Assembly (NCBI GenBank): GCA_963665665.1
Contig: OY762428.1
Span: 2,272,001-2,336,000 of the forward strand
Source: Candidatus Kapaibacterium sp.
Lineage (GTDB): Bacteria; Bacteroidota; Ignavibacteria; Kapaibacteriales; UBA2268
Direction: 5' to 3'
DNA: 64,000 nucleotides
Shown: positions 7,182 to 54,495 of the stretch, piece after piece
How positions within the stretch are numbered: position 1 is the first letter of the stretch
How the letters are laid out: each line of letters opens with the position of its first letter
Notes under the pieces: model-generated
Told to the model about the DNA's origin: nothing
Database searches by the model: none
Seen by the model: only the letters and a program-made list of their open reading frames with translations
Position numbers and translations under genes: made by a program

Positions 7182-8762
7182 TTATCTGATCACAACAAAT
7201 TTGCCGCTGTAGGAGCGCTTGTTTGCAGTCATCCGGATAATATATGATCCTGATTTATTAATCCTGAATGGCATGTTGTAAATACCCGCGTTCATACTGC
7301 CGTTTTTAATATCCAATACTTTATAGCCCAGGAGGTCATGTACGCTGATCGAAACATTCGAAGCCTCGCGAAGCTCGAATGAGACAGTTCCTTCACCCGT
7401 GGGGCTGGGGCTTGGATATACTTTCAGTCCGGACCGGCCGCCTGCAACCGGGTCATTTACCGATACATCGCGGGGTTCCAGAACACCTATAGGCATATAC
7501 TGCTCGCCAAAAACAGCCGCACTATCCTGTGGTTCAGCACCGAGCCATGTTTCCAGGAAATCCGTGTAGGTTCTGCGGTAATCAAACTGGTGGCGCACGT
7601 CGCCGTCCTCATCCAGGTCGTCCAGGTCAGGTTTTTCACCGTAATAACCGGCTTTCACGTGATCTCCGAAAACAAACTGCATGGAAGCTGCGCCGTGGTC
7701 AGTTCCACGCGATCCGTTATCGTAAGCCCTGCGGCCAAATTCCGATGTTGTCATTCCTACAACTCTTTCCGACCATCCCTGCTGCACGGCATCGTCCATG
7801 AACTCGCATATTGCAGCGGCAGCCTGCTGCAGGAGTGTCGGGTGCTGGCCTTCGAAATCTTCGGTCATCTGCTGGGCATGTGAATCGAAATTACTAAGAT
7901 TTACATAATACACTTTGGATTGCAGGCCTCCGGCTATAAGCGCGGATATCATTTTAAATTTCTGTGGTAGCCCCTCACTGTAATTCACTTTGATTTTCTC
8001 AATTCCGGCATCGTAGGCTGCTTTTACTTTCTGCGAATAAAGTTCTGACTGCTGGGCTATTACTCTTGCGAAATTAAATTCGTTATCAAAAGCACTGTCG
8101 CCTGTCATAATAGGTTCAACCGGAGTCAATCCCTGTCCAAGTTCGTAGAATTTATCCGGATCGGTAAGTGCTATGCCCATGTGTCCCTTATCGCTTTTGA
8201 ATGTAAGCGACAGCGAGCCGTCAATATTCACTGCTATCGGATCCTCGGGTATTTCCTGGGGATAATTTTCAAGCATATTTGCGAAATATCTTCCCAGCCA
8301 GCCCTCGTTCAGGTTCACGCTGTTGTTTGAATTATTTATACCACTCAGCCAAATATCCTGGGATCGAAAATGCGAAAGATTGGGATTAACATATCCAACT
8401 CCTTCGATAATGGCAAGCCTGCCGTCTTCAAGAAGGCGCATCATCCCGCCGTTGTGTATCCCGTCAACGATGGATTTATTCATGTAAACATCCGAAGTCT
8501 GGAAACGTCTTGTTTCGGCTTCGGGATAGGCAAGCGTAGGCCTGAGGTTGTAATAAGTATCGTTATACACCGGAACAATTGTGTTCAGCCCGTCATTTCC
8601 GCCGAAAAGTTCCAGTATTATCATGATATTATCATTTTCGTTATTTAATATCCTGTCGTTCGGGACGGTTGAAAATATCGGTTTCCCCTTAAGGAATGCC
8701 GGGGCAACTGCCGCTCCGGCTGTAGCAACTGCTGTGCTTTTAATAAATTGTCTTCTTTTCAT
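7182..8762 (-). CDS. DUF1501-family protein with twin-arginine signal and T9SS-type C-terminal domain
   Basis: MKRRQFIK signal; GGNDGLNT, LSHFRSQDIW, FDSH and SEFGRR...NGSRGTDHG motifs; tail LKVYPSP...SGSYIIR...KFVVIR. Confidence 0.85.
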   Translation of the reverse strand: MKRRQFIKSTAVATAGAAVAPAFLKGKPIFSTVPNDRILNNENDNIMIILELFGGNDGLNTIVPVYNDTYYNLRPTLAYPEAETRRFQTSDVYMNKSIVDGIHNGGMMRLLEDGRLAIIEGVGYVNPNLSHFRSQDIWLSGINNSNNSVNLNEGWLGRYFANMLENYPQEIPEDPIAVNIDGSLSLTFKSDKGHMGIALTDPDKFYELGQGLTPVEPIMTGDSAFDNEFNFARVIAQQSELYSQKVKAAYDAGIEKIKVNYSEGLPQKFKMISALIAGGLQSKVYYVNLSNFDSHAQQMTEDFEGQHPTLLQQAAAAICEFMDDAVQQGWSERVVGMTTSEFGRRAYDNGSRGTDHGAASMQFVFGDHVKAGYYGEKPDLDDLDEDGDVRHQFDYRRTYTDFLETWLGAEPQDSAAVFGEQYMPIGVLEPRDVSVNDPVAGGRSGLKVYPSPSPTGEGTVSFELREASNVSISVHDLLGYKVLDIKNGSMNAGIYNMPFRINKSGSYIIRMTANKRSYSGKFVVIR

Positions 8763-18323: not shown

Positions 18324-21300
18324 TTATCTTACAATATTTAGTTTTCTTGCATAATCCTTACCGCCGGTTCTGATGATAATCAGGTAGGTTCCGGATGGAA
18401 TTTCGCTGATATCAAATTCAACATTACGGCTGCCTATAAGATTTTCTTTATCATACAAGTTGCCGATAATTCTGCCAGTCATATCAACAAGATCTATCCT
18501 GATATTTAATGGGTTAGTAAATTCCAAAGGTATTGCTACCTTATTGTGTGCCGGGTTCGGAGAAGGCATTCCTATTGAGTATCCTTCGCCTTTGATAATT
18601 TCATTAACAGATCCCGGATCTACTGCAAAGCCTTCAAGAACAACTGATAAAGGAGAATTATCGGCAATGCTGTAAACTTTCAGCTCGCCTTTTCTTAATC
18701 CGGCTTTCGCAGGTTTGAACCTTATGCGGAATCTTTCTGTCTGTCCTATCTGTATTTGTTCGGGGGCAGCCATCATAAACGAGAACTCTGCGTCCCCTCC
18801 CTGTGGATCGTCATCGGTGATAACTGAATTTGTAATATCAATATCAACTTCGCCGGTATTTTCAATTTCTGCAAAGGATGTTTTGGTTTTCCCGACCTCA
18901 AGAGTATCAAATACAAGTTTATTACCTGTTTTCAGGGTCAGTTCCTTCTTTGCCCCGGGGGGTATATAATTAAACAGCAGATTGTTAATATATTGCGAGA
19001 AATACCATACAAGCATTTTGTTTCCACTTTGCGGCACTGCGCAACCGGTCTGTGCTCCGTTTGCTTCTTCTGATAAAGCCGGGAACCACTTTTGCCCCAT
19101 ATTCGAAGAAAGATAAACCTGGCCTCCGCTGCCAATAATTCCTATCATCTCGGATTCAGGCGGGCTGAACAGATTTACAGGACGCAAACCAATATCTGTA
19201 AGGTTGAATTTATTCTTAACCCAGTTGTTGCCACCATCACTTGTTGAAGCAACGAGCAAATCGGAATCGGCATCTGCCGATTCAGTATAAACAGCAATAC
19301 CCTTGTTCTCATCAATGAAGCCGATATAATAAACATAACTGCCGGAATTAATCGTTGATACTCTCCAGTCAGCGCCACGGTTGGTAGTTCTGTAAACACG
19401 GCCCGTTGTTGTACCGAACCAGCCGTAATCTCCCATCCAGTATGTTGACCCGACATAACCGGTTTCCTGTGCTCCTGCAGCAGGGATACCTTCAACTCTT
19501 GCCCAGGTTTTACCGCCGTCAGTTGTTGAGCCTATACCCCAGTTCTCTCCCAACGGGTCACCGAGGAAAATACCATTATTCTCATCAAAGAAATTAATAT
19601 CATTAATAAAGCCGGTTATCGAATTTACAGCTATTGTTGACCATGAAGAACCCGTGTTAACTGTTCTGTATATTCTTGCACTTCCATTGGAAGGCCCGTC
19701 GCCAAGGCAGGCGGTTGTTTCATTGATAATTCCAACTGCATAAACAGGATTGTTTGTAGCTTTGTTTATCGTTGAACCATTAGGGCCGACCTTGAAATAA
19801 ATACCACCGTAAACAGCGCTCTGCCCGGCAGCCCAGACAACATTTGAACCCTGGTATTTGGCTGAATGAAATACAGCATAGAACCAGTCCGGAAGGGCTG
19901 TTACATTATTAAATACATTGTTGCTGCCAATCTGTATCGGAATTCGAACCATCTGGTAGTCTGTATAATTAGTGGCTTCAAATTTAACCAGAAGTTTGGC
20001 ATATCCCTCAAACCATGGATTTATATCAAGCAACCTGAGCCTTATATCAAAATCCTTTGTCTGGTTCATGGAAAGTACACCGATATTGAACTCACTGTTT
20101 TCAATGCTGACATATTTATCCATCGGTGTGATAGTTATCTTCAGGTCAGATACATTAGCAAGGAAGTTATGCGTTTCCATATTAATTATACGGCTTTCAA
20201 AGTTATCAAGGACATCACTTCCTTCAATTGATAATTCTGTTATTTCGCATCCGGGAGCGCTAAGCTGAGGATTTTTATCATTATAAGCAAGGGCTTTATA
20301 TGCATTTATCCTTCCGTAAAGCAAGGGCCTTAGATCAGGATCCGATGTTAAAACATTATCAGATGTTGACCTTATCTGGTGGATGATCTGTTTCGGCGAC
20401 CAATCCGGATGGTAAGCTGCAACAAGGCCACACACGCCTGCCGTTACCGGAGAAGCCATTGAAGTACCGTTCTGACTGGAGTATGTATCCGTTGGATATG
20501 TTGCCCTGATGCTCTGCCCGGGGGTAAAAACTGTCGTATAGTGGCCATAGTTACTGAAACTTGCCATTTTATTGTTTGAAGCAGAAGCACCAACGCAAAG
20601 TACGTTGTCATATTTTGCAGGATATTGATCGTAAGTATCCAGATTTGAACCGTCATTTCCTGCTGCAACTACAACAATTGAACCCATTTCGGTAACTTCG
20701 TTAATTATTTCCTGTGCTGCCGGGCTGAAACCCGGGCCGCCCCAGGAACAGTTAATAATTTTTGCGCCCATTCTTGCAGCATAAAGAATACCTTCGTACC
20801 CACGGTAAATTCCCTGAACGCTCCCGTTGTCTGCACTGCATTTTACAGGCAGCAGCGAACAATTGAATCCTGTTCCGGCAACACCGAGTTCGTTATCGGT
20901 AACTGCTGATGCACATCCGGCAACATGTGTGCCGTGATGGTTCGATGTCAGAGCAGGTTTAGGATTATTGTCTTCCCTGAATGATCCGTTGGCAGCCTGG
21001 TTCTGGTCGATATTTCCCACAAGGTCCCAGCCGTTAACATCATCAATTTTTCCATTATTATCATCATCTTCGCCATTATCGGGAATTTCATTCGGGTTTG
21101 TCCAGATGTTGGCTTCCAGGTCCGGGTGGTCAATCTGTGTTCCGGAATCAACAATACCTATAAGCACATCCTTGCTGCCTTTGCTGATATCCCATGCTTT
21201 TTTCAGTTCAATATTATTAACAGCCCACTGATTATTAAGAAGCGGATCGTTGGGTGTATATTCAAACGGTTGATGAATAAATACGGGAACGGCATATTCA

Positions 21301-21773
21301 ACTTCCGGATTGTCCATCAGTTCCCGGCAGACATCATACGGATCAACAGGCGCTGAATATGTTAATTCATAAATTTTTGTAATCTCGCTGCTTTCGGTAG
21401 AAGGAGCATTCCTGTCCTCGAATGGCGCCCTGATTGATTTGATACCAAGGTCGCTGATAGAGGATTGAAGAGTTGAATTTCTGAATCCTTTGTCACCGGC
21501 ATCGACAAGGAATTTTTGCCTGGTTTTAATATGAATCATTCCCTGAACATAGTGTTCGGGTGATACTTTTGGAATACGATATTTTTTTGCTGCAGAATAG
21601 TAATCAGCAGAAATTTTCTTTCCCGGTACATTAATCGTATATGCGAGTTTGAAATCATCGTCAGTTTGTTTCACCGATTTCGGGTATTTAACCGGAGGAG
21701 CAGCTGCAAAAGCACCTGAACTTGCAACAGCAAACATTATCATCATACATAAAGCGGTCATTTTTCTTATCAT
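18324..21773 (-). CDS. Secreted S8 subtilisin-like protease with BNR-type repeats, Ig-like domain and T9SS C-terminal domain
   Basis: Catalytic IVDSG, HGTHVAG and GTSMASP; S/T-x-DGG-x-x-W repeats; PSPNPA...SGTYLI...KLNIVR tail. Confidence 0.9.
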   Translation of the reverse strand: MIRKMTALCMMIMFAVASSGAFAAAPPVKYPKSVKQTDDDFKLAYTINVPGKKISADYYSAAKKYRIPKVSPEHYVQGMIHIKTRQKFLVDAGDKGFRNSTLQSSISDLGIKSIRAPFEDRNAPSTESSEITKIYELTYSAPVDPYDVCRELMDNPEVEYAVPVFIHQPFEYTPNDPLLNNQWAVNNIELKKAWDISKGSKDVLIGIVDSGTQIDHPDLEANIWTNPNEIPDNGEDDDNNGKIDDVNGWDLVGNIDQNQAANGSFREDNNPKPALTSNHHGTHVAGCASAVTDNELGVAGTGFNCSLLPVKCSADNGSVQGIYRGYEGILYAARMGAKIINCSWGGPGFSPAAQEIINEVTEMGSIVVVAAGNDGSNLDTYDQYPAKYDNVLCVGASASNNKMASFSNYGHYTTVFTPGQSIRATYPTDTYSSQNGTSMASPVTAGVCGLVAAYHPDWSPKQIIHQIRSTSDNVLTSDPDLRPLLYGRINAYKALAYNDKNPQLSAPGCEITELSIEGSDVLDNFESRIINMETHNFLANVSDLKITITPMDKYVSIENSEFNIGVLSMNQTKDFDIRLRLLDINPWFEGYAKLLVKFEATNYTDYQMVRIPIQIGSNNVFNNVTALPDWFYAVFHSAKYQGSNVVWAAGQSAVYGGIYFKVGPNGSTINKATNNPVYAVGIINETTACLGDGPSNGSARIYRTVNTGSSWSTIAVNSITGFINDINFFDENNGIFLGDPLGENWGIGSTTDGGKTWARVEGIPAAGAQETGYVGSTYWMGDYGWFGTTTGRVYRTTNRGADWRVSTINSGSYVYYIGFIDENKGIAVYTESADADSDLLVASTSDGGNNWVKNKFNLTDIGLRPVNLFSPPESEMIGIIGSGGQVYLSSNMGQKWFPALSEEANGAQTGCAVPQSGNKMLVWYFSQYINNLLFNYIPPGAKKELTLKTGNKLVFDTLEVGKTKTSFAEIENTGEVDIDITNSVITDDDPQGGDAEFSFMMAAPEQIQIGQTERFRIRFKPAKAGLRKGELKVYSIADNSPLSVVLEGFAVDPGSVNEIIKGEGYSIGMPSPNPAHNKVAIPLEFTNPLNIRIDLVDMTGRIIGNLYDKENLIGSRNVEFDISEIPSGTYLIIIRTGGKDYARKLNIVR

Positions 21774-27042: not shown

Positions 27043-27813
27043 TTAGAAATTATTCTCAACATCAAATGAACTAACCAGGAAACCCGGGTTCAGCAGTGAT
27101 TCTTTGTTGTAGATAAAACGTCTGCCACCGTTCTCAACCATACCGCCAGCTGCTTCCACAACACCCTGGCCTGCAGCAGTGTCCCATTCCATGGTAGGCC
27201 CTCCCCGGAAATACAGATGGGCTTTGCCCTCGGCCACCATACAGAATTTCAGTGAGCTGCCCCTGGAAATTGACTCAACAACATTAAATTTCGCAAGGAA
27301 TTCCTTTTCTGCTTCGCCGGCATGGGAACGTGACTGAACGGCGATTATTCCTTCGCCTGTGTTCTGATTAACTTTTATCTCTTCCTTAACTCCTTTGGTT
27401 ATTTTAAAAGCACCTTCTCCTTTTGTTCCAATATAAATATCATCCAATACTGGCGCTGATACTATACCAAATACCGGGTAACCGTCTTCTATCAGGGCAA
27501 TATTCACAGTAAATTCGCCGTTACGTTTTATAAATTCCTTTGTTCCGTCCAGAGGGTCAACCAGAAAGAAGCGTCTCCAATTCTTACGGTTTTCGTAGGG
27601 AATTTCCTTCTCTTCCTCTGAAATAATTGGAATATCCGGGTAGAATTCTCTTAAAGATTCAGTAATAACCTTATTTGAAGCTTTGTCGGCTTTTGTAAGC
27701 GGAGAGTTATCCGATTTCATCTCAACTCCGAAATCATCAGTATGGTAAATATCCATAATAGCTTTTCCGGCTTCAATAACTATCTCAATCATTTTATCAT
27801 TGTCAATCAGCAT
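27043..27813 (-). CDS. cysQ: 3'(2'),5'-bisphosphate nucleotidase CysQ
   Basis: SPLTKAD, DPLDGTKEFIKRNGEFTVNIAL, GSSLKFC and EWDTAAG motifs. Confidence 0.92.
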   Translation of the reverse strand: MLIDNDKMIEIVIEAGKAIMDIYHTDDFGVEMKSDNSPLTKADKASNKVITESLREFYPDIPIISEEEKEIPYENRKNWRRFFLVDPLDGTKEFIKRNGEFTVNIALIEDGYPVFGIVSAPVLDDIYIGTKGEGAFKITKGVKEEIKVNQNTGEGIIAVQSRSHAGEAEKEFLAKFNVVESISRGSSLKFCMVAEGKAHLYFRGGPTMEWDTAAGQGVVEAAGGMVENGGRRFIYNKESLLNPGFLVSSFDVENNF

Positions 27814-29775: not shown

Positions 29776-31338
29776 ATGACAAATAATGTTATCAATCTGA
29801 AGAAAAAGATAAAAGATTTTAAAACCGAAGGAATCAAATTTTCCGTATCAGGCAGGGAAATTCTGCCATATTATGATATAATTGATTTTCTAAAAATATA
29901 TTATCCGTTTATTAATTTGAAACAGATAGAAAGTTCATTTGGCAGTACATATATACCCTCTGATTTGTATGGCGGAAGGAAGTATAACCCTGAAAAATCA
30001 TTTACTGACGGGCATATTGCAAAATTGGCTGAGAATAATATTAACTTATCTTTAACACTTACCAATCATTACTTTTCTCCGGATATTTACGAAAAAAGTA
30101 AATATTTACTTGAGAAATACCATAAAGCCGGCAATTCAGTAATATGTGTAAATGATGAACTTGCAAAACAGATAAGGATTGATTTCCCGAAATATCAGCT
30201 CAGGGCAAGTATTATTAAAAATATAAATACTTTGAAAAAAGTTGAGGAAAATCTGGAAATATATGATTTTATTGTGATACCCATGGATAAAAATGACGAT
30301 GATGAATTTTTGAAAAGCCTGCCGGAAAAGAAAAAAATTATGCTTTTTGCCAATGCATCATGCGCTTATTCATGCCCGACAAGAACCTGCTATAAAGGAT
30401 TTTCGGAGGTAAATAGAGGTGGCGATCAGGTAAATCTTTGCTCAAGAAATAAAGTTGACAGATTGAACATGGGGCTTGTATTTTTTGATGTGCTGAAATT
30501 CAGGGATATGGGATTTGATTATTTTAAACTTGTTCCTTTGAAACAATATAAAACTAATGATGTAATAAAATTTTACAGCGAAAAAAGACTAAAACAAAAA
30601 ATTAATTTTAATGAAAAAAACATGTTTTATTTGTGTTCATTCCCAAAATCCGGGAGGACATGGCTGCGCTTTATACTGGCAAATTATATTAATCTATATT
30701 TTAAAACCGACGAAAAAATTAACCTTAACAATATGTTTGAATTCATTCCTAATAATATTTACGGAGGGCAAAAAGGTTTTGCCAGATTCAGATATTATAA
30801 CAGGCCGGAAATACCACTAATTTTATCTACCCATGAGAAATACAATCCGAATATTTTCAGTGAAAAAAGAATAATATTTTTAAAAAGGAACCCTTTGGAT
30901 ACGATAGTATCATACTATTTTCATATTAAAAATGATCCGGGATATCGGGGAAATATAAGCGAATTTATAAGAGATAAAAAATTTGGTATCAGGTATCTGA
31001 AAAGATACTATAAATTATGGGAAAAAAATCTGAATAATGAAAGTCTTATTATAAGCTATGAGGATATGATAGATGATATTGAATCTGTTATCATCAATGT
31101 TTTGAATTTTATTAATATTCAGGTTGATAATGAAATATTGAAGGAATCAATTAACAATTCTGATATTAATAATATGAGAAATTCAGAAAATCTGGTTAAA
31201 ATCCCTGACATGAATGAAAGTGCCGTCAGGGTAAGAAAAGGAAAGACAAATAATTACATGAATTATTTGTCTGAAGAGGATATTAAATATTGTAATGATA
31301 TTTTAGATGTAAAATTACATAAACTATTGGAAAAATAG
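29776..31338 (+). CDS. Fusion of a Cys-rich U32-like domain and a PAPS-dependent sulfotransferase
   Basis: C-terminal half has CSFPKSGRTW (5'-PSB), RNPLDTIVSYY (3'-PB), YED and VRKG. N-terminal half has GGR, LTLTN, ASII and NASCAYSCPTRTCY...C, which resemble U32-like TIM-barrel proteins (less certain). Confidence 0.7.
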   Translation: MTNNVINLKKKIKDFKTEGIKFSVSGREILPYYDIIDFLKIYYPFINLKQIESSFGSTYIPSDLYGGRKYNPEKSFTDGHIAKLAENNINLSLTLTNHYFSPDIYEKSKYLLEKYHKAGNSVICVNDELAKQIRIDFPKYQLRASIIKNINTLKKVEENLEIYDFIVIPMDKNDDDEFLKSLPEKKKIMLFANASCAYSCPTRTCYKGFSEVNRGGDQVNLCSRNKVDRLNMGLVFFDVLKFRDMGFDYFKLVPLKQYKTNDVIKFYSEKRLKQKINFNEKNMFYLCSFPKSGRTWLRFILANYINLYFKTDEKINLNNMFEFIPNNIYGGQKGFARFRYYNRPEIPLILSTHEKYNPNIFSEKRIIFLKRNPLDTIVSYYFHIKNDPGYRGNISEFIRDKKFGIRYLKRYYKLWEKNLNNESLIISYEDMIDDIESVIINVLNFINIQVDNEILKESINNSDINNMRNSENLVKIPDMNESAVRVRKGKTNNYMNYLSEEDIKYCNDILDVKLHKLLEK

Positions 31339-31350
31339 TTATTATGATAT

Positions 31351-31476
31351 CTAAGAAGTATGATAAGTATCGCTTTCGCCATCAGTTTCAGGTGGTGAAG
31401 AAATATTTCCATCAGTATCGCTTGAATCAAAATCAATTACCTGTGGCTTTTTCCATTCTTTTTTATTGTCTTTCAT
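31351..31476 (-). CDS. Lasso peptide precursor (41 aa; absent from the ORF track)
   Basis: MKDNKKEWKKPQVIDFDSSDTD|GNISSPPETDGESDTYHTS*. It has a WxxP leader motif, Thr at -2, Gly1, Glu8 and a C-terminal Ser, and lies 70 bp downstream of the cyclase on the same strand. Confidence 0.9.
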   Translation of the reverse strand: MKDNKKEWKKPQVIDFDSSDTDGNISSPPETDGESDTYHTS

Positions 31477-31546
31477 AATCAATTCTTTTTTTTTAAATAT
31501 ATATCAACTTAATCTGGATATAATATACTTAATTGTACAGTTAAAT

Positions 31547-33496
31547 TCAAATTTCTATTTGTTCAATAAATTTAATAGTAGCTATAGTATGCAGAATCAG
31601 CTTTGTTGTTTTTGAAAACAGATCCTGAGTATATTTCTCTGATTTTATATTCTCAAGAGTTTCTGATATTTTATTCTTATCGAATCGAATAATTCCATCA
31701 TTGCTATATGTATTAATAACTTTTTCAGTCCTGTTCATATCCAGTAAAACGCGATATGAAAGATCCTTTGCCTGCTTGCCGCGTTTGGTATTGCTAAGAA
31801 CTTTTTCGGGCAATTTTCCTTTCATAGCGCTTCTGATGAGATAACGTCCGATACCTTCGTGTTTGAATAATCCAGCAGGTATTTGTTTTGTAAATTCGCT
31901 AACGCGCCTATCGTTTGTGGCATCCCTGGTTTCAATTTTATTTATTAAATTATAATCAATATTACTATTAGATCCTGTATTGGATATATGTTTTTCAAGT
32001 ACTTTCCTGTTTTCGAAATTATTCAATTTATTATTTCTGTATTTAATAGCAGATTTGGCTTTTAACTGGTTCAGATGTTTATCTATTAATTCGAATCTGT
32101 TCAGCGTTTCTTCGCAAAATGGAATCAGGTGATCCCTGCCAAGAGATTCATGTAATTTTTTCGGGAAAAGACCTGAAAGCTTTGTTTTAGTTATTTTGCG
32201 AATACTTCCTAAAGATGTTGTAAACAACGATTTATTTGTATGCCGGGATTCAGACTTCCATTCTGAAAATAATTCTATCAATTTATATTGTCTCAGCAGA
32301 TCATGATAAAGGCCTGCGCCTGTTCTGGAAATTGTTAAATTACCGGCCTGGCCGTTAAGAAGCACATTAACATTATCCCCGGCTGCAAGCTGCAATATCC
32401 GCCAATGCCAGAAGCCGTTTTGAAAGTTAGAAGTGAATAGTTTGTTATATTTCAAGTCAATATCTATCGCGTCAATAGGGTAGAAATCCTTAGCGTTAAC
32501 AAAGTTGTGAGCAATATCATCGGGATACATATCCAGGATGGATTGAACATAAGGGGTTTCATCAGAAATCGACTTGATTTTCGGGCATTTATCAGGGTAA
32601 GCCGGAACAGAAGAATAGGAATATATCTTTTTCCCTTTTTTTCTTAGTTGATCAATTGCCAGTACAGTTGAAGAACTTGAATCCAGGCCTCCGCTCAGGT
32701 TAGAGCCTGTCCTTCCTTTTGTGCTAATTCTTTTAGATACAGCGTCGCTGTATATATCAAGAAAATGTTCAATATAATCATCGTTATTTTTATAATTGAT
32801 CGGAGATAAATTTTCCGGTTTCCACCAGCGTTCTTTTTTTTCTAATCCTGAAGAAGAGAAAATATAATTGTGGAATCTATTAATATTGAAAATATTTGTA
32901 TAAAATGTATCCTCATCGCCGGATTTAACCTGAAATGGCAGCATTCTGCAAATAAGATGTTCATAATTGACTTCGGGAGTAAAATCCGGTAGTTTAAAAA
33001 ATGCTGTTATTGTTGAAGAAAAGTAAATTGCTTTCGATGTTTCATAATAATACAATGGATAAATGCCGCTATGCCCTGATAATATAATTATTTTCCTGTC
33101 CTGTTTGTCCCAAATCAGCGGCATTAAATCACCAAAGATATGATTGTTTGTATCAAATTCCCATTTTTCGAAAGCATGAAGATAAAGACTGATATCGGAC
33201 AATTTATCTATATCTGTTTTTCCGGCAAGGCCCAAAGAATTTATTAGATCATCCCTGTTGTCAATCCTCATTCTCCCGGCGCCGATATACCTCCCGGACG
33301 GAGATTTAACAGGTTGTTCTTCTATCGGATTTTCAGTAAGTATGTCAATGTTCATCTGCACGAGAGCAAAGTTCCCGTCAGTAAAATAGTTATAGCTGTC
33401 GTATTGAACATCATCATAAGCAGATCTCATTTTTTCCAGTATATCAATATCAGCCGGGCTGATATCCTTATTAAAAAAAGCAATTGTGATAGTCAT
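31547..33496 (-). CDS. Lasso peptide cyclase (asparagine-synthetase-like, C protein)
   Basis: LSGGLDSS ATP-binding motif, RIDNRDDL, LNGQAGN, DRRVSEF and RYLIRSAMKGKLP; lacks the N-terminal Cys of AsnB; adjacent to B1/B2. Confidence 0.9.
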   Translation of the reverse strand: MTITIAFFNKDISPADIDILEKMRSAYDDVQYDSYNYFTDGNFALVQMNIDILTENPIEEQPVKSPSGRYIGAGRMRIDNRDDLINSLGLAGKTDIDKLSDISLYLHAFEKWEFDTNNHIFGDLMPLIWDKQDRKIIILSGHSGIYPLYYYETSKAIYFSSTITAFFKLPDFTPEVNYEHLICRMLPFQVKSGDEDTFYTNIFNINRFHNYIFSSSGLEKKERWWKPENLSPINYKNNDDYIEHFLDIYSDAVSKRISTKGRTGSNLSGGLDSSSSTVLAIDQLRKKGKKIYSYSSVPAYPDKCPKIKSISDETPYVQSILDMYPDDIAHNFVNAKDFYPIDAIDIDLKYNKLFTSNFQNGFWHWRILQLAAGDNVNVLLNGQAGNLTISRTGAGLYHDLLRQYKLIELFSEWKSESRHTNKSLFTTSLGSIRKITKTKLSGLFPKKLHESLGRDHLIPFCEETLNRFELIDKHLNQLKAKSAIKYRNNKLNNFENRKVLEKHISNTGSNSNIDYNLINKIETRDATNDRRVSEFTKQIPAGLFKHEGIGRYLIRSAMKGKLPEKVLSNTKRGKQAKDLSYRVLLDMNRTEKVINTYSNDGIIRFDKNKISETLENIKSEKYTQDLFSKTTKLILHTIATIKFIEQIEI

Positions 33497-33501
33497 ATTT
33501 A

Positions 33502-33948
33502 TCAGCTAAAGTATTCTACAACGGTGAATTGCCTCATGCCCTCGCGTCCGGTAACAATTCTGTTGCCGGAGCGGAGCCATGCATGAGCTTTCATTTTTTG
33601 ATCATTATCTTTCGCCACGCCAAAGTAGATGGTTGATTTTATTTTTCTTCTGCCAAGCATCCATTTTACGGTTAATGCTTTGTCATAGCATTTGGATTCC
33701 CAGGGAGATTCACGAAAGGCGCGATTTGCCGCCCTGTTTACTTTCATAATAATATTCTTTTCCTGAGCATTTAATTCCATTTTTTCGCTTTCTTTCCTTT
33801 TCTTTCCAATAAGGAAGGAATAGTATCTCATAGGCAGCAAAAGAATAATTACTCTGGCAAAAGCATCATTTATAAGGGCTTCGATAAATAGTAATTTATC
33901 TTCAAAAAGGAAGCCGTAGAAATTCCTTATTTTCCTAAAAATTTTCAG
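33502..33948 (-). CDS. Lasso peptide leader peptidase (B2, transglutaminase-like)
   Basis: PWESKCYDKAL (catalytic Cys) and AHAWLRSG (His). The frame stays open up to a CTG at 33948, adding a typical B2 N-terminus (KLLFIEAL...ARVIILLLP). Confidence 0.88.
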   Translation of the reverse strand: MKIFRKIRNFYGFLFEDKLLFIEALINDAFARVIILLLPMRYYSFLIGKKRKESEKMELNAQEKNIIMKVNRAANRAFRESPWESKCYDKALTVKWMLGRRKIKSTIYFGVAKDNDQKMKAHAWLRSGNRIVTGREGMRQFTVVEYFS

Positions 33949-34226
33949 GACTTCACATCAATAAGTTTCATTTTTACGAGTTTTTCCAGAAATTCCGTTG
34001 TGTCTTTTTCGCATACTTCCCTGTCGATATTATATTCTTCGAGTAGTTTATTTACCAGGTCGCCAAAGCTTATTTCATTTTCAATTTTTGCCCATATTAC
34101 TGATCCAATCTCGTCGAAACCATAGTATTTGCTGGTTTCTACGCTCATCATTACAGTCTGGTTGTCAATCTCGCTGCTGATAAAATCATCTTTCCTGATG
34201 ATTATTGTATTGCCTGTTATTTCCAT
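33945..34226 (-). CDS. PqqD-family RiPP recognition element (lasso B1)
   Basis: IDNQTVMM...KYYGFDEIGSVIW...LLEEY..DREVCEKD..EFL; 93 aa. Confidence 0.92.
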   Translation of the reverse strand: MEITGNTIIIRKDDFISSEIDNQTVMMSVETSKYYGFDEIGSVIWAKIENEISFGDLVNKLLEEYNIDREVCEKDTTEFLEKLVKMKLIDVKS

Positions 34227-34258
34227 GATATTTATCTATATGTTAATAAATGATAAAA

Positions 34259-34308
34259 TTCTTTACATAAGGAACGAACTCTGATAAGAAAACACGATTT
34301 TCTTTACA
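34259..34308. repeat. Direct repeat, left flank of fic
   Basis: 50 bp identical to 35453-35502; contains the 32-bp unit AACTCTGATAAGAAAACACGATTTTCTTTACA (34277-34308). Confidence 0.95.
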
Positions 34309-34319
34309 AAGAATAAAAA

Positions 34320-35381
34320 CTATCCGATTTTCAATAATTCCATCAATTTTTCATTGACATAATAATTCCCTGTGCCAAGCCGGTGTTTTGTCAGCAGGCC
34401 GTCATTTGCCATCTCGTTTAAATATTTTGCGGCGGTTATTCTTGATACTCCTAGATCTGTTTCAAGGAATTCAATTTTCGTATAAGGATGTTTGAATAAA
34501 TTGTTCAGTAAATCCTGGCTGTAGAATTTATATTTTGAACGTATAATATTTTTATATTCAAATATCAATTCCCGGATATTTTTTATTAATACTATTGTTT
34601 CCAGGGAAGTTTGTTCAACACATTCAAGGATATAAATCAGCCAGTTTTCAAAAATATTGCTTTGCCTGACATCCTGTAACAGATTGTAATAATGTTCTTT
34701 GTTTAATATAATATATCTGCTATGGTACAAGATCGGTAATTTTAATAGGTCTTTCAGAACAAGATATAACACATTCAATATTCTTCCTGTTCTGCCATTT
34801 CCATCATAAAACGGATGAATGCTTTCGAATTGATAATGTATTATTGCCATTTTTACCAAAGGATCCAAATCAGAAATCGAATCGTCATTGATGAAGAGTT
34901 CAAGATTTGACATAAGCTCAAGAATTTCATTCGGATCCTGGGGCGGAGTATAAACTATGTCTCCACTTGTATCATTTTTCAGCACAGTTCCCGGTACTTT
35001 CCTGAAACCGGCAGAATTTTTTTCAAGTTCCTCCTGAATTTCAAGAATGGTATTTCTTGTTATCATCCCGCTTTCAGAAACCAGGGCAAAACCTTTCTTA
35101 AGCGCCGAACCGTAGTTTTGAACTTCTTTTGCGTTAAGGGAATCAAAACCGTCAAGATTCAGTTCGGATTTATACAGGTCATCGTGTGTTGTGATGATAT
35201 TTTCTATTGCCGAACTGTCTTTTGCTTCCTGAAGCCCCAGAGTATTTATTAAAATATTCTCATTGGGAATTGTTGTTGAAATACCTTTCAATTCGGCGAG
35301 CGCTCTGTGAGCAGAAGAAAGTTTTTTGAGAACTTTTACAGTCTCCAGTTCTACTTTATTATATGGTAATTTCTGTATCAT
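34320..35381 (-). CDS. Fic-family protein (class II-like, with C-terminal HTH)
   Basis: HPFYDGNGRTGR Fic motif; SSAIEN inhibitory motif; LGVSRITAAKYL HTH. Start at ATG 35381 (MIQKLP); the track's extension lies inside the repeats. Confidence 0.92.
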   Translation of the reverse strand: MIQKLPYNKVELETVKVLKKLSSAHRALAELKGISTTIPNENILINTLGLQEAKDSSAIENIITTHDDLYKSELNLDGFDSLNAKEVQNYGSALKKGFALVSESGMITRNTILEIQEELEKNSAGFRKVPGTVLKNDTSGDIVYTPPQDPNEILELMSNLELFINDDSISDLDPLVKMAIIHYQFESIHPFYDGNGRTGRILNVLYLVLKDLLKLPILYHSRYIILNKEHYYNLLQDVRQSNIFENWLIYILECVEQTSLETIVLIKNIRELIFEYKNIIRSKYKFYSQDLLNNLFKHPYTKIEFLETDLGVSRITAAKYLNEMANDGLLTKHRLGTGNYYVNEKLMELLKIG

Positions 35382-35388
35382 AATTTCA

Positions 35389-35502
35389 AACTCTGATAAG
35401 AAAACACGATTTTCTTTACAAAGATACAAAACTCTGATAAGAAAACACGATTTTCTTTACATAAGGAACGAACTCTGATAAGAAAACACGATTTTCTTTA
35501 CA
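35389..35502. repeat. Three tandem 32-bp units with 41-bp period, right flank of fic
   Basis: Units at 35389-35420, 35430-35461 and 35471-35502, separated by 9-nt linkers AAGATACAA and TAAGGAACG; internal dyad AAGAAAA-cacga-TTTTCTT. Confidence 0.95.
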
Positions 35503-35505
35503 TAG

Positions 35506-36375
35506 TTAAACCAGAATATCTCCATTTTCAGAAAGGTATCCATATTTTTTCATTATTTCCGAATGGTTTGCGATTATTGATTCAACCATAGCATCGTTCA
35601 GCTGATTTCGCCAGGCGCCCTTTTTGCCTTTGCGGAAGAAGGATTCGGATTTTGGATTCTTTTCCTTAAAGCCGTGCTCTTTTTCCATTTCTTTTAATTT
35701 GTCAAATGTGCTTAGTCCAACTGCTTTTGAAATTTGCCCGTGCGTGTAATCGAAATCTGTAAATTCCAAAGCCCGTGTGAATTCTTTTACAGGATCGTCC
35801 TTCATATCTTCATATCTCAAAATAATAACCGGAATTTTATCCTGCTCAGTCCAGCTTCTGATATGCAGGCTCCATGACAGGAGTTTTTGCCTAAGCTGGT
35901 TATGAAGAGTACCGTCGTTGGTACAAAAAGCGAAATTCTCGTTGTTCATATCCAGGATACTTTTATGAATCGGTTTATTTGAATGATGTGCAAAGGAACA
36001 GGCTACATCAAAAGGATTCCTTATAATATATACAGCTGAATGGCTAATTTCTTCCGGGAACATTGGCCGCCCGTCAGGTAGAAGTGTATAAGCGTCATGC
36101 GTTTTCAGGAATCGTTTGTCTTCTTCAAATTCATCGGCAAGGTGTTTGTATATATCCGGCCTTGCCAGGTCAATCTCATCCATTGTCAGATCGGAAGCGG
36201 CAGTTCCGGCCAGATCGTCAAATGTATCCCGGCTGCTGGAAATAGGGCCTCCAGTCAGGTTATTTATATCTGCCGGTTCAGAATAACCCATTACAAGATT
36301 TGTGAAAAATACTCTGAACCATGTGTTACCTGATTTTGGGTAGGAGGCAAGCCAGATTATTTTTTTATTTTCCAC
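35506..36375 (-). CDS. PAPS-dependent sulfotransferase (lasso cluster)
   Basis: WLASYPKSGNTW, KTHD, RNPFDVACS, RYEDM and FFRKGKKG motifs; overlaps the kinase gene end. Confidence 0.92.
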   Translation of the reverse strand: MENKKIIWLASYPKSGNTWFRVFFTNLVMGYSEPADINNLTGGPISSSRDTFDDLAGTAASDLTMDEIDLARPDIYKHLADEFEEDKRFLKTHDAYTLLPDGRPMFPEEISHSAVYIIRNPFDVACSFAHHSNKPIHKSILDMNNENFAFCTNDGTLHNQLRQKLLSWSLHIRSWTEQDKIPVIILRYEDMKDDPVKEFTRALEFTDFDYTHGQISKAVGLSTFDKLKEMEKEHGFKEKNPKSESFFRKGKKGAWRNQLNDAMVESIIANHSEIMKKYGYLSENGDILV

Positions 36376-37279
36376 TATTAGCCTCCAAATCTTTTAGTAT
36401 TGCGTCAACAATCATTGCAGGATCCGATTTCATCCTAATCCTGTTAAGTTTTCGTATAAAGATATCTTTGGAGTTTGCTATTTGTGTTAAAAAGATAAAA
36501 TGTTTGTCCGGCTGTCCGGTTCTTTGAACAAATCTTTTACGGTATGTTGAATTTCTTAGAAATTTGATTTTCTTAATTGAATCAATTTCTGATATTTCAA
36601 TATCTTCAAAAGGCCCCGGCTTTATAAAATATATTCCCATTACCGGCCTTGATTTTTCAATATCGTGTATTGATATTGGAATTCTGAATTTTTCCTGTTC
36701 TTCTCTTATCTTTTCGATATTTGAATAATCTGTTTTCAGCATTTTCAGGCTGTCATTCCAAAGTTTAATCTCTGAATGTCCGGGAATTATTGATATAATC
36801 CCATCGTCGTCTATAGTTAATAATGAAGTATCGTCACAAAGCAGGCCGTATCCTCTTTTTACAAATTCAGCGGCAATGGTGGATTTTCCGGCGCCTGATT
36901 TCCCTGAGAAAAGTAATGCCCTGCCATCGATTTCCACTGCGCTGGCATGGAGGGCGAATATTCCGCGCTGATGCGCCAGGGCCCCGAGAACTGATCCGAA
37001 AAGGAATACTTTTAACTCGGATTCCGAAGTATCGGGATTAAGGTCAACAGTAATAGTCCTGCCGTCTTCAACAAGGAATCTTCCCACGCTTTCTAAGTTA
37101 AATAGAAATTTGCCCGGGGCTGCGGAATATAAAGGATAGACCTGTGCATTTCCGTTCAATTTTTCAGGTACGTCACCTTTGCGGATTATAACATCGCTTT
37201 CTTTTTCTGTTTCCGGAAGTCCGGAAAACTCGAATTCCGAGTCAAATACAAAACCGTATGCGTAATATTTTTTTCTCAT
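36365..37279 (-). CDS. HPr-kinase-like lasso peptide kinase
   Basis: YYAYG, LHASAV, GKSGAGKST P-loop, LCDD and IKLW: the signature set of paeninodin-type (PadeK-like) kinases. Confidence 0.88.
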   Translation of the reverse strand: MRKKYYAYGFVFDSEFEFSGLPETEKESDVIIRKGDVPEKLNGNAQVYPLYSAAPGKFLFNLESVGRFLVEDGRTITVDLNPDTSESELKVFLFGSVLGALAHQRGIFALHASAVEIDGRALLFSGKSGAGKSTIAAEFVKRGYGLLCDDTSLLTIDDDGIISIIPGHSEIKLWNDSLKMLKTDYSNIEKIREEQEKFRIPISIHDIEKSRPVMGIYFIKPGPFEDIEISEIDSIKKIKFLRNSTYRKRFVQRTGQPDKHFIFLTQIANSKDIFIRKLNRIRMKSDPAMIVDAILKDLEANSGK

Positions 37280-37285
37280 AGTATA

Positions 37286-38308
37286 TTATTTGGTTTTAAT
37301 TTTTAAATAATCAAAAACTATATAAAATGGAATTAAAGGATAATTTAGGTATCTGAATATTCCGGGAAATTTAATTTTTGATATATATGATATAGAATAA
37401 AAAGATCCAAAAAATATTTTCAATTTAAAAAAAATGGATCTTTTCAATTTCATTTTATAAATAATAGAATCAACAATACTATTAAAAGTCTTGATATCAT
37501 AGGGAATCAGTATTCTTTTTACACAGAAATCACTTAATTTTCCATGAAACTCTATATTATCATTCAACTTAATTTTGTGATTATAAATATACGATAAAAG
37601 ATTTAATAAAGGGAAGTAAAGGCGTTCTAAATGATATCTTTCCGCAAGTTTCCCTGCTGCAAAAAACAAATCAGGACGATTCATGTATATAAAATGTATA
37701 TCCCGAAGCCAAAATAGACGATTCCAGAAATGTATTCCTCCATGAATAATCAAAAAAAGAATATTTTCTGTTGATAAGGAGCTATAATCTACATAAATTT
37801 TAGATAGGTCATATTCAGTGTTAACATTTTTGGGAATCCAATTATGTTTAAATAATTTCCAATGAAGTTCAATTAAAATATTGGTTTTTGAACTAACAAA
37901 TTTCATCTGATTATTTCTGCGAAATAATTCATTAAAATTCTCTTTGTTGTAATCACTATAATCCTTATAAATTTTAATATTGTTCTCAGTTAAAACTTGT
38001 ATAGCTTTATTGATATTTTTAAATTCAATCAGGATATCAATATCTCTGCTCATCCTATCCGCCGGATCTGAGTATAGAAGCCCGGTTATTCCCGGCCCTT
38101 TCAGGTTTCTGAATTTAATTCCATTAATTTCAAGAATTTTGGAAATTCGTTTCAATTCAGTATTGATAACAAGCATTTTCCGGGTTTCTATTTTAATCAG
38201 GCTATCTATTTGTGTCAATATTGACTCGCTGAGATACGAACTATATAATTTCAATTTTCTAAGTGCAGGAAGAAGCAGGCGATGCCTTCTGCCAAGCTTT
38301 ACAAACAT
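37286..38308 (-). CDS. Nucleotidyltransferase (NTP_transf_5-like); true start probably upstream
   Basis: LKG, LY..P..R.S.DIDILI, IELHW and RLFWLRDI motifs. The frame stays open upstream (...FLEKGFDWQMFVKLGRRHRL). Confidence 0.85.
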   Translation of the reverse strand: MFVKLGRRHRLLLPALRKLKLYSSYLSESILTQIDSLIKIETRKMLVINTELKRISKILEINGIKFRNLKGPGITGLLYSDPADRMSRDIDILIEFKNINKAIQVLTENNIKIYKDYSDYNKENFNELFRRNNQMKFVSSKTNILIELHWKLFKHNWIPKNVNTEYDLSKIYVDYSSLSTENILFLIIHGGIHFWNRLFWLRDIHFIYMNRPDLFFAAGKLAERYHLERLYFPLLNLLSYIYNHKIKLNDNIEFHGKLSDFCVKRILIPYDIKTFNSIVDSIIYKMKLKRSIFFKLKIFFGSFYSISYISKIKFPGIFRYLNYPLIPFYIVFDYLKIKTK

Positions 38309-38459
38309 CTGCCAGTCGAAACCTTTTTCAAGAAAATTGATAATAATATCTTCACGATAAGCTTCCGGGTGTTTTGTCAGCTCGATTAGTAAGATAAGTT
38401 CCTTATTTGCATCATCTGTAAAAATTTTGATATACCTGTATATTATAGTTATAATATTA

Positions 38460-38497
38460 CAAATATAATAAATACAATGTTACGCATAACAAATATA
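38460..38497 (-). promoter_or_regulatory. Putative -7 promoter elements for the lasso operon
   Basis: TATATTTG on the minus strand at 38460-38467 and 38490-38497. The same TAnnTTTG motif precedes trxA (24526), cysQ (27840), the hydrolase (27919), serS (38609), mnmE (48978) and atpD (63740). Confidence 0.5.
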
Positions 38498-53306: not shown

Positions 53307-53670
53307 AAAGATTAACTTAACAACAAACAAATTAGTCCGGACAATTATTGTTCGGGCTTTTTTTATGCTACAAATATTTTTAAAGCGTTGAGATAACATA
53401 ATTTCCGGCATAGATAATTCTAAGCGAAGCGGTTGGAAAATACAAGAGTGCCTGATGAGTTATCTGTTAGTAAATTATTCTTCATGGACGTAAAAGATGC
53501 TCGGCTGATAGGCAATAGTATGAAATGAATAGTGATATCTGCGTTTTGTAACCAATAATTTGTTAGTGTGTAATTTTAGAAACGGGATTAGATGAATATA
53601 TCAGAGAGCTAAGCTGAAATAATAAATCCTAAGGGATGGTTTGATTAAAATTTATCTGAAAGGAGATACT

Positions 53671-54495
53671 ATGAATTATTTAAAACACACTATTTTAATA
53701 TTATGCTGCTTAATATTTTGCGGGAATAGCCTGTATTCACAAATTAAGCTATATCCTCTTGAAAAAATTACTCCGGCCGAAGCAGGAACTGATGCTGCAA
53801 ACCTGTATTGGACAGAAGACGGTAATGAAACCTCGATGTTCGAAAAAGCCGGGGACAGGACAATTGTTCTGAGTTTCTGGGGAACCTGGTGTGGATTTTG
53901 TGTTCGCCACACTCCTGATCTGGAAAAGGCCTATCAGAATTTACCAAAGGAAAAGTATTATTTTATTAATGCTGTTGGCGAATATACCAAAGAAAGTGAA
54001 TCCGCACTCAGAACTGCCATTGAAACGAATAATGTTACTTTTGATAATGTGTGGTACACTTTTGATGATGAAGATTCAATGCAGGCACATGCATTTTATG
54101 GAGTTTCAGAATTTATCACAACCCTGGTAATAACTACAGACAGAAAAGTCAGGTTCGACATAAAGGATGTTCTTTATAAAGGCTTGATTGACAGCCTTGA
54201 TCAGATAACAAGTGTTGAAATTTCTGATGATGGTGATAAAGCAATGGTTGCTGCATATCCGAATCCATTTTCTGACATTCTGGTATTCAAATATAATGCG
54301 GGAAATGATGATGAAGCAATAATTGAATTGTTTGATCAGCTTGGGAATGTTGTTTCCACAAACCGTGAGAATGTATCATCTGGGAAAGAAAATACAAGTA
54401 TAATCGAAACAACAGGATTAAACAGCGGTATATATTATTACAGAATTAACACAGGAAAAGAATTCTACTCGGGCAGAGTAATTCTTTCAAGATAA
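53671..54495 (+). CDS. TlpA-like thioredoxin-fold protein with T9SS C-terminal domain
   Basis: Signal peptide, FWGTWCGFC, and AYPNPF...SGIYYYR tail. Confidence 0.8.
   Translation: MNYLKHTILILCCLIFCGNSLYSQIKLYPLEKITPAEAGTDAANLYWTEDGNETSMFEKAGDRTIVLSFWGTWCGFCVRHTPDLEKAYQNLPKEKYYFINAVGEYTKESESALRTAIETNNVTFDNVWYTFDDEDSMQAHAFYGVSEFITTLVITTDRKVRFDIKDVLYKGLIDSLDQITSVEISDDGDKAMVAAYPNPFSDILVFKYNAGNDDEAIIELFDQLGNVVSTNRENVSSGKENTSIIETTGLNSGIYYYRINTGKEFYSGRVILSR

Follow-up and report, generated by a model that had tools for sequence, protein, structure and literature searches.

A group of genes in the 64,000-nucleotide stretch of contig OY762428.1 analysed here (positions 2,272,001 to 2,336,000; hereafter the window) raises two questions: whether these genes direct the synthesis of a lasso peptide and, if they do, which of the additional enzymes encoded with them decorate it. 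An initial annotation of this DNA had proposed a lasso cluster with a kinase, a nucleotidyltransferase and two sulfotransferases. The results presented below indicate a lasso cluster of the paeninodin-like kind (class II, split-B and tailored by a kinase) in a genome of Bacteroidota, of the Ignavibacteria/Kapabacteria type, a reading to which we assign a probability of about 0.8.

Eight co-directional open reading frames (ORFs) occupy the minus strand from 38308 to 31351, in the order N-K-ST1-Fic-B1-B2-C-A. N stands for a nucleotidyltransferase (NTase), K for a kinase, ST1 for the first sulfotransferase, B1 for a RiPP (peptide made by the ribosome and modified after translation) recognition element (RRE), B2 for a leader peptidase, C for a macrolactam cyclase and A for the precursor. 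A ninth ORF on the plus strand, encoding the second sulfotransferase (ST2), converges on the precursor gene. The ORF list and the Pfam and NCBIfam searches recovered all the named genes, intact and on the strands and at the positions first assigned to them, with the correction that the coding run stops at 38308 and not at 38497, positions 38309-38497 being intergenic. The K and ST1 genes overlap by 11 nt, the cyclase gene starts 5 nt after the end of B2, and the stop codons of ST2 and the precursor are 12 nt apart.

The precursor and the core lasso machinery

The precursor is a peptide of 41 residues (MKDNKKEWKKPQVIDFDSSDTDGNISSPPETDGESDTYHTS). Its leader contains a WKKP motif, whose Trp and Pro occupy -15 and -12, and a Thr at -2, and the predicted core begins with Gly1, carries Glu8, Asp10 and Tyr16, and ends in Ser19. 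A lasso precursor pattern (W/YxxPx followed by a hydrophobic residue, Thr or Ser at -2, Gly, Ala, Ser or Cys at position 1, and Asp or Glu at 7-10) matched only one of the 1476 stop-to-stop segments of 22-130 residues present in the window, and this segment is the precursor ORF. The Trp of the WxxP leader motif is described as nearly invariant in paeninodin-like precursors in the part of the study by Popov et al. (PMC13381572) devoted to them, and PbaA has it at -15, the position that it also occupies in the window. Among 1.84 billion representatives a single credible homologue of the precursor was found: P0301, of 39 residues (MKKEWHKPKLYDLDSNDTDSNPVKQPPNDGGGGGDYHTS; E 7.3e-4, 53% identity). 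The three other matches, of four, were long proteins aligned over a short, compositionally simple stretch, and they were discarded. The leader of P0301 is in the same register and its mid-core differs, and the C-terminal YHTS is the only part of the core that is conserved within the clade of the window. The retention of this tetrapeptide suggests Ser19 for the phosphate and, as a candidate, Tyr16 for the sulfate.

The cyclase contains the PF00733 and GATase_7 domains of Pfam. In NCBIfam its best family was the lasso cyclase model NF033535, with 232.6 bits, versus 112 bits for asn_synth_AEB. Residue 2 of the protein is Thr, that is, the Cys2 nucleophile of glutaminases is missing, and the PP-loop LSGGLDSSS is invariant in the aligned relatives. 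Since Cys2 is absent, the PP-loop is kept and the lasso model scored twice as high, an identity as true AsnB does not hold, and the initial assignment to a lasso cluster instead of AsnB or a polysaccharide amidotransferase is upheld. With respect to the leader-processing proteins, B1 and B2 both exceeded the curated cut-offs of their NCBIfam models. Residues C51 and H86 of B2 are invariant across five sequences (the window protein and four homologues), and the solved proteins nearest to B1 are the lasso chaperone 9x90_B (E 4e-14) and TbiB1 (E 2.7e-12). All four lasso functions are represented by family matches. Matches were also obtained for every family that had been named for this locus, i.e., those of the cyclase, B2, PqqD, NTP_transf_5 and Sulfotransfer.

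Joint folding of the RRE and the precursor gave a score of 0.47, while the best of three controls reached 0.01; contact agreement between runs was at least 94% and the predicted local distance difference test (pLDDT) of the partner was at least 56, with our own alignment as input. Of 157 solved complexes, 116 reached the mark for this score, as did two of 215 mismatched pairs, and at 0.60 or below it was reached by just 18 of these solved complexes together with both passing mismatches. The predicted fold gives weak support to binding of the precursor by B1, but the existence of solved complexes of like kind may explain the pass by likeness alone.

Close relatives of the cyclase are few. Seven (P0001-P0007), with 49-55% identity, were found among 5.8 billion proteins, the next best match having 31%, and a cyclase-only scan of species-representative genomes yielded no close relative. 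A profile-guided scan with alignment A1 and a generic PP-loop pattern provided 80 related loci, whose cyclases are 23-31% identical to that of the window. These loci span many phyla and include two from Archaea. Homologues of the kinase occur in 65 of them, of the RRE in 62, of B2 in 39, of the NTase in 26 and of ST1 in eight; Fic and the N-terminal domain of ST2 occur in none. The presence of the kinase in 65 and of the RRE in 62 indicates that the wider kin of the cyclase are kinase-associated lasso clusters.

The cyclase tree was a quick maximum likelihood reconstruction (92 rows, LG+G4, branch support from SH-aLRT only) for which the program gave warnings of uneven amino-acid composition and of two long-branch joins. 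The window cyclase and P0001-P0007 form a clade of eight (SH-aLRT 100, stem 1.24) nested in a group of 26 rows (SH-aLRT 99) that also holds those of the Bacillota loci L005 and L029 and that of L024, from Paramagnetospirillum, in which kinase, NTase and ST1 genes are all present. Some of the related loci have peculiarities of their own. For instance, L016, L024 and L027 each encode two HprK-like kinase paralogues, and L027 and L032 contain three or four candidate precursors each. The archaeal loci L028 (Methanobacterium sp.) and L061 (Halomontanus rarus) combine the cyclase with HprK-like kinase, RRE and NTase genes and with candidate precursors, which indicates that kinase-type lasso clusters reach into Archaea.

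The Bacteroidota-type host originally proposed is borne out by the genes around the cluster. The nearest relatives of the adjoining seryl-tRNA synthetase (SerS), with at most 72% identity, are named Bacteroidota, Ignavibacteria or Kapabacteria, and four proteins of the window have sorting domains for type IX secretion (Por_Secre_tail), which fit a host of the Bacteroidota/Ignavibacteria group. Judged from these sequences, the host is a member of the Bacteroidota, of the Ignavibacteria/Kapabacteria type. Secreted proteins ending in Por_Secre_tail are encoded at 7182-8762, 18324-21773 and 53641-54495, one of them being a subtilase of 1149 residues. The SerS of the window was matched at 100% in the protein collection, on a contig of 5,458,198 bp; the searches with the cyclase and ST2 did not return their own copies, the best matches having 55% and 56% identity, respectively.

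Table 1. Features of the putative lasso cluster and of the converging gene, with their positions in the window.
Feature	Positions	Strand	Assignment and remarks
N, NTP_transf_5 nucleotidyltransferase	37286-38308	-	PF14907, 101.9 bits; opens the minus-strand run
K, HprK-like lasso peptide kinase	36365-37279	-	PF07475, 34.4 bits; TIGR04352, E 1.2e-12
ST1, PAPS-type sulfotransferase	35506-36375	-	Sulfotransfer_1 (PF00685), 97.9 bits
28-nt element, three tandem exact copies	35393-35502		between ST1 and Fic
Fic (SoFic-like), C-terminal winged-helix domain	34320-35381 (ORF as listed 34320-35429)	-	Fic_N, Fic, SoFic-like_C
28-nt element, fourth exact copy and first part of next unit	34262-34308		between Fic and B1
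B1, PqqD-type RRE	33945-34226	-	NF033536, 87 bits (cut-off 80)
B2, transglutaminase-like leader peptidase	33502-33840	-	NF033537, 82.2 bits (cut-off 33); PF13471
C, Asn-synthase-like macrolactam (isopeptide) cyclase	31547-33496	-	NF033535 best family, 232.6 bits
A, 41-residue precursor	31351-31476	-	lasso precursor pattern
ST2, U32-like TIM barrel (residues 1-~275) and Sulfotransfer_1 (285-516), 520 residues	29776-31338	+	Sulfotransfer_1, 92.4 bits

Proposed tailoring by the kinase, the nucleotidyltransferase and the first sulfotransferase

The translation of K contains the P-loop GKSGAGKST, and its nearest solved protein is the HPr kinase 1ko7 (E 3.9e-5). Its homologues in the related loci show 23-36% identity; those of L005 and L029 have 31%, with E values of 1e-39 to 1e-40. 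Paeninodin-type kinases act on the linear precursor and phosphorylate its C-terminal Ser, as summarized in the review PMC8498205, and the window precursor ends in Ser, in agreement with the kinase-type cluster first suggested. The initial statement that the precedents come from Firmicutes has to be corrected. Proteobacterial lasso kinases have also been characterised, the polyphosphorylating ones by Zhu et al. 2016b, as cited in that review (PMC8498205), and the pair formed by a kinase and a sulfotransferase is proteobacterial in seven of its eight related loci and acidobacterial in the other. No solved relative was found for N, which has 25-33% identity to the NTases of the Bacillota paeninodin-like loci L005 and L029. 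According to the account of pseudomycoidin given in the same review, its nucleotidyltransferase decorates the phosphoserine with one or two hexoses (PMC8498205).

The motif PKSGxTW and residues H93, R119 and S127 of ST1 are invariant in nine sequences, so that the residues for catalysis and for binding of 3'-phosphoadenosine 5'-phosphosulfate (PAPS) are kept. Its homologues in the related loci (34-49% identity) belong to seven Pseudomonadota and one Acidobacteriota, and in all eight cases the gene lies directly beside the kinase gene, with gaps of 5-136 nt. Without a common substrate, a pairing kept in different phyla would be difficult to account for, and it is the strongest evidence that ST1 and the kinase share their substrate. 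Both the nucleotidyltransferase and the first sulfotransferase thus stand as conserved companions of such clusters (26 and eight of the 80 related loci, respectively), as had been supposed, and ST1 is assigned here to the lasso pathway on grounds of family membership and gene neighbourhood. The solved proteins nearest to ST1 are Teg12, Teg14 and StaL (E 7e-17 to 2e-11), followed by aryl sulfotransferases; the match to the first three spans just residues ~106-234. Teg12, Teg14 and StaL depend on PAPS and place sulfate on hydroxyl groups of glycopeptide antibiotics, whose peptide scaffold is constrained.

The following pathway is proposed, each step of it deriving from the families to which the proteins belong. 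B1 would bind the WKKP leader motif of the 41-residue precursor and K would phosphorylate the C-terminal Ser19. The NTP_transf_5 enzyme may then extend this phosphate with a hexose or a nucleotide-derived group, as in pseudomycoidin, and ST1 would move sulfate from PAPS to the peptide, Tyr16 being the favoured acceptor. B2 would cleave after Thr-Asp, and the cyclase would join Gly1 to Glu8, giving a ring of eight residues and a loop and tail of 11 residues. The product is predicted to carry roughly six to seven negative charges, which supports the earlier expectation of a strongly anionic mature core.

Several observations weigh against this proposal or against parts of it. The score of the cyclase is below the curated cut-off of NF033535, which is 525; NF033535 is an "exception"-type model and the window cyclase is a deep branch. 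In P0301, neither Asp nor Glu occupies core positions 7-9, the earliest acidic residue being Asp10, and for this reason the ring assignment is not secure for the family: a ten-residue ring or a shifted cleavage site may occur in the clade of the window. The ABC exporter and the isopeptidase, which had been reported as missing from the cluster, were not found in wider scans of the window either. The lasso ABC transporter of L024, used as query (E<=1e-10), found no counterpart in the whole 64 kb, versus 38 of the 80 related loci; no ABC ATPase domain appeared among the window ORFs scanned with Pfam, and no S9-type isopeptidase of Pfam among the 33 other large window ORFs scanned. If the peptide is made, its export must depend on something other than the usual pump encoded in the cluster. 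Genes for PAPS synthesis were likewise not detected among the ORFs scanned in the window. None of the 80 related loci comes from the cyclase clade of the window, so that the counts of gene conservation given above describe distant kin. The strict precursor filter left 44 of these loci without a candidate, including the ST1-bearing L001, L024 and L030. Finally, the Tyr-rich ST1 loci (L016, L027, L030, L032 and L036) constitute one cyclase clade and are weakly independent, and the candidate precursors of the ST1-bearing loci L006 and L024 contain no Tyr, that of L024 not ending in Ser either.

The last two points concern the acceptor of ST1. Tyr accounts for 10.9% of the residues in predicted cores at ST1-bearing loci and for 0.7% elsewhere, a 15-fold difference, and it is found within the last ten residues at four of five ST1-bearing loci and at four of 31 others (Fisher p = 0.005). 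This statistic was rejected as proof of Tyr sulfation, the Tyr-rich loci being a single clade. Tyr16, within the conserved YHTS, is favoured as the acceptor in the window, though not established, and the assignment is put forward tentatively.

About as likely as Tyr16 is the action of ST1 on another group of the peptide, either a Ser/Thr hydroxyl or the sugar that N would attach to the phosphoserine. The Tyr-free candidates of L006 and L024 and the restriction of the Tyr-rich set to one clade agree with such an acceptor, as do the Ser/Thr-rich C-terminus common to almost all candidate precursors and the combination of kinase, NTase and ST1 that L024 and L030 share with the window. However, Tyr is enriched in the predicted cores of ST1 loci, YHTS is common to the window and P0301 while the remaining core drifts, and the solved proteins nearest to ST1 include aryl sulfotransferases besides Teg12, Teg14 and StaL, which act on glycopeptide hydroxyls. 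A sugar cannot be the general acceptor, since six of the eight ST1 loci have no NTase within the flanks examined. A lasso peptide that bears phospho-Ser and sulfo-Tyr and no further modification is rated at somewhat less than even odds.

Sulfotransferase genes have been noted in lasso clusters since at least 2014 (PMC4289311), and PMC8498205 and PMC4289311 already report lasso clusters that combine kinase, nucleotidyltransferase and sulfotransferase genes. The initial remark that no sulfated lasso product had been characterised agrees with the listings of the literature searched, in which none was found (subscription journals were outside its coverage). The window and its relatives make this loose end concretely testable, with ST1 as a fixed neighbour of the kinase and with defined predicted masses. 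The monoisotopic values calculated are 1974.808 for the cyclised core, 2054.774 with HPO3 added, 2054.765 with SO3, 2134.731 with both, and 2216.827 with HPO3 and a hexose, so that phosphate and sulfate would differ by 9.5 mDa.

The converging fusion and the Fic gene

The N-terminal 280 residues of ST2 (whose N-terminal half is encoded at 29776-30600) match no Pfam family at E<=0.01, the U32 model included, and a profile search of the sequences of the Protein Data Bank (PDB) gave nothing for this domain. Its structure was predicted with confidence, both in the full-length protein and when folded alone (pLDDT 89.9 and 90.3, the latter for the isolated domain). The top Foldseek match of the isolated domain was the U32 peptidase Mk0906 (5d88), with E 2.5e-7, template modelling (TM) scores of 0.58/0.64 and 13% identity, and the next ones were generic TIM barrels with E values of ~1e-3; the full-length model retrieved sulfotransferases only. 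These models assign the domain a U32-like TIM-barrel fold. Four Cys residues (C196, C200, C205 and C222) are invariant; they lie in the loop of lowest pLDDT and are candidate ligands of a 4Fe-4S cluster. In the ESM Atlas the clusters nearest to the domain were unnamed and largely viral (score 0.94), and U32 appeared at rank 19 (score 0.90), in a cluster with this family on 20% of its members; both are leads only.

ST2 belongs to a widespread family. About 75 full-length relatives are listed, with 35-56% identity and from many phyla, including Draconibacterium, Labilibaculum, Scalindua, Rhodoferax, Methylomonas, Halarcobacter, Desulfobacteraceae and others, and seven stand-alone proteins of ~287 residues match only its N-terminal half. 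The best relative among 5.8 billion proteins, P0058 (56%), and the cyclase relative P0002 (54%) are both found on contigs of 296,950 bp. The part of PMC10990095 that deals with U32 proteins proposes them to be Fe-S, prephenate-dependent hydroxylases, and the architecture of ST2 suggests hydroxylation followed by sulfation. A full-text literature search that paired U32 with sulfotransferase found no paper. The tie of ST2 to the lasso peptide consists of its position and the 296,950-bp figure shared by the contigs of P0058 and P0002. The absence of its N-terminal domain from the 80 related loci and the breadth of its family make its membership in the pathway doubtful. ST2 is probably, by a modest preference, an independent neighbour and not a third tailoring enzyme; its participation in the pathway is possible, at less than even odds. 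Regarding the second sulfotransferase fusion described initially, its presence and its convergence on the precursor stand, and its tailoring role is unproven.

At 27043-27813 on the minus strand, 2 kb from ST2, the window encodes CysQ, a 3'(2'),5'-bisphosphate nucleotidase (TIGR01331, 302 bits; cut-off 229). CysQ removes 3'-phosphoadenosine 5'-phosphate, the by-product and inhibitor of sulfotransferases. Its proximity to ST2 may be coincidental.

The Fic protein retains the catalytic motif HxFx(D/E)GNGRxxR (HPFYDGNGRTGR) and matches three Fic domains in Pfam; in NCBIfam it reaches 359 bits with NF046030, whose cut-off is 550. Its gene is bracketed by a 28-nt element that contains a short inverted repeat (CTGATAAGAAAACACGATTTTCTTTACA, plus strand). 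Four exact copies exist in the 64 kb, versus none expected from 100 shuffles, and all of them are located in the two gaps that flank the Fic gene: three in tandem, 41 nt apart, upstream of Fic up to the ATG at 35381, and one, with a partial next unit, upstream of B1. This ATG is the likely start of Fic, since the ORF as listed has 16 further codons upstream that consist of repeat DNA. The repeats could be an array of operators, or what an insertion left behind. Fic is probably either an insertion into the repeat array or a DNA-binding regulator with an operator before itself and before B1-B2-C-A; being flanked by the repeat and absent from all 80 related loci, it is likelier to be one of these than a tailoring enzyme. 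Other scans of the locus gave nothing distinctive: counts of promoters and terminators were not above those of shuffles (48 vs 49.1 and 4 vs 5.5), the GC content per gene (0.27-0.42) did not set Fic and ST2 apart from the other genes, and no tRNA marks an island border at the locus.

These data bear on two further readings of the tailoring genes. In the first, the genes that serve the lasso peptide are limited to A, B1, B2, C and that of the kinase, with N as a possible addition, and both sulfotransferases act on glycans, lipids or small molecules. The spread of the ST2 family in taxa with no visible lasso tie, its absence from the related loci and its opposite strand would suit this explanation, as would the very varied acceptors of Sulfotransfer_1 enzymes. 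However, ST1 homologues stand beside the lasso kinase in eight of eight loci, the two genes overlap in the window, and the contigs of P0058 and P0002 share the same length, all of which renders it improbable. In the second, ST1, ST2 and Fic all decorate the peptide: the U32-like domain would hydroxylate it without O2, ST2 would sulfate the new hydroxyl and Fic would add AMP or a related group. The convergence of ST2 on the precursor gene, the U32 fold match with its four invariant Cys in a low-confidence loop, the hydroxylase activity proposed for U32 proteins (PMC10990095, in its passages on this family), the intact Fic motif and the 296,950-bp contigs are in its favour. Against it, the ST2 domain and Fic are each found in none of the related loci, most genomes with an ST2 relative have no known lasso link, no Pfam U32 match was obtained at E<=0.01, and the repeat array brackets Fic as it would an insertion or an operator-controlled regulator; this scheme is still less probable than the preceding one. 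That the "cyclase" is an asparagine synthase or an amidotransferase of primary or polysaccharide metabolism, and that no lasso peptide is made, is very improbable, for the sub-cut-off lasso score and the weaker AsnB-type and exopolysaccharide amidotransferase matches are opposed by the missing Cys2 nucleophile, the B2 gene 5 nt upstream, the adjacent B1 and textbook precursor, and the kinase and RRE in 65 and 62 of the 80 nearest loci.

The preferred reading thus remains a kinase-tailored lasso cluster, with ST1 as a probable further tailoring enzyme. A more elaborate product, with three kinds of anionic O-modification, is unlikely: it would combine a (poly)phospho- or phosphoglycosyl-Ser19, a sulfo-Tyr16, which might serve as steric plug, and a sulfate on a hydroxyl installed by the U32-like Fe-S domain of ST2. 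If true, such a product would be the first lasso peptide to carry sulfate, and its pathway the first for a ribosomal peptide to use U32-type hydroxylation without O2. Whether or not it acts on the peptide, the U32-like/sulfotransferase fusion represents a widespread and uncharacterised enzyme family worth a study of its own. The cluster itself is real and apparently intact; it falls in a deep-branching clade, and its lineage has no characterised lasso peptide. According to the portion of PMC12214591 that surveys them, just three phyla have furnished solved lasso structures; these are other phyla, and an expressed lasso peptide from Bacteroidota would therefore widen the sampled space.

Comparison with known systems

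The closest parallels are paeninodin, from Paenibacillus dendritiformis, and the Bacillota loci L005 (Neobacillus cucumis) and L029 (Bacillus sp.), which have in common with the window the split B1/B2 proteins, the Asn-synthase-like cyclase and the HprK-like kinase. As far as they are described in PMC8498205 and PMC13381572, paeninodin-like clusters also share the Trp at -15 in WxxP and the C-terminal Ser, and often include an NTP_transf_5 gene. The cyclases of L005 and L029 group with that of the window, yet their identity to it is 25-29%, and that of the kinases is ~31%. The window differs from the paeninodin-like clusters in its reversed gene order, with the precursor last, in the presence of ST1 and of a Fic gene inside the cluster, and in its Bacteroidota host; it lacks the ABC exporter that both L005 and L029 possess. 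The pseudomycoidin cluster of Bacillus pseudomycoides combines, like the window, a kinase and an enzyme of the NTP_transf_5 type (PMC8498205, in its section on this peptide), the window having an additional sulfotransferase. Here the likeness to PsmN is one of family.

The uncharacterised proteobacterial loci L006, L016, L024, L027, L030, L032 and L036 resemble the window in the position of the kinase beside an ST1-type gene (34-38% identity), in their WxxP leaders and in the C-terminal Ser; five of them have a Tyr near the C-terminus, and L024 and L030 also contain an NTase. They differ in belonging to another phylum, five of them falling in another cyclase clade, and many have several precursors or two kinases; none carries Fic or ST2. 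Three components of the window, its RRE, HprK-like kinase and NTP transferase, recur in the clusters of Bacillota for linear polyphosphorylated peptides (LPP; PMC13381572). In the description of LPP clusters given there, they possess no cyclase or B2, and have a signal-peptidase-like protease and YxxP leaders, whereas both the cyclase and B2 are encoded in the window and its leader is of the WxxP type; an assignment of the locus to this type was rejected on these grounds.

With respect to the sulfotransferases, no solved protein is closer to ST1 in sequence than Teg12, Teg14 and StaL, but their substrates are non-ribosomal. The N-terminal domain of ST2 can be compared with the U32 Fe-S proteins (UbiU/UbiV, RlhA and TrhP) and with Mk0906, on the basis of its fold likeness to 5d88 and its four invariant Cys; it departs from the U32 family in having no Pfam U32 match, in its 13% identity to 5d88 and in its fusion to a sulfotransferase.

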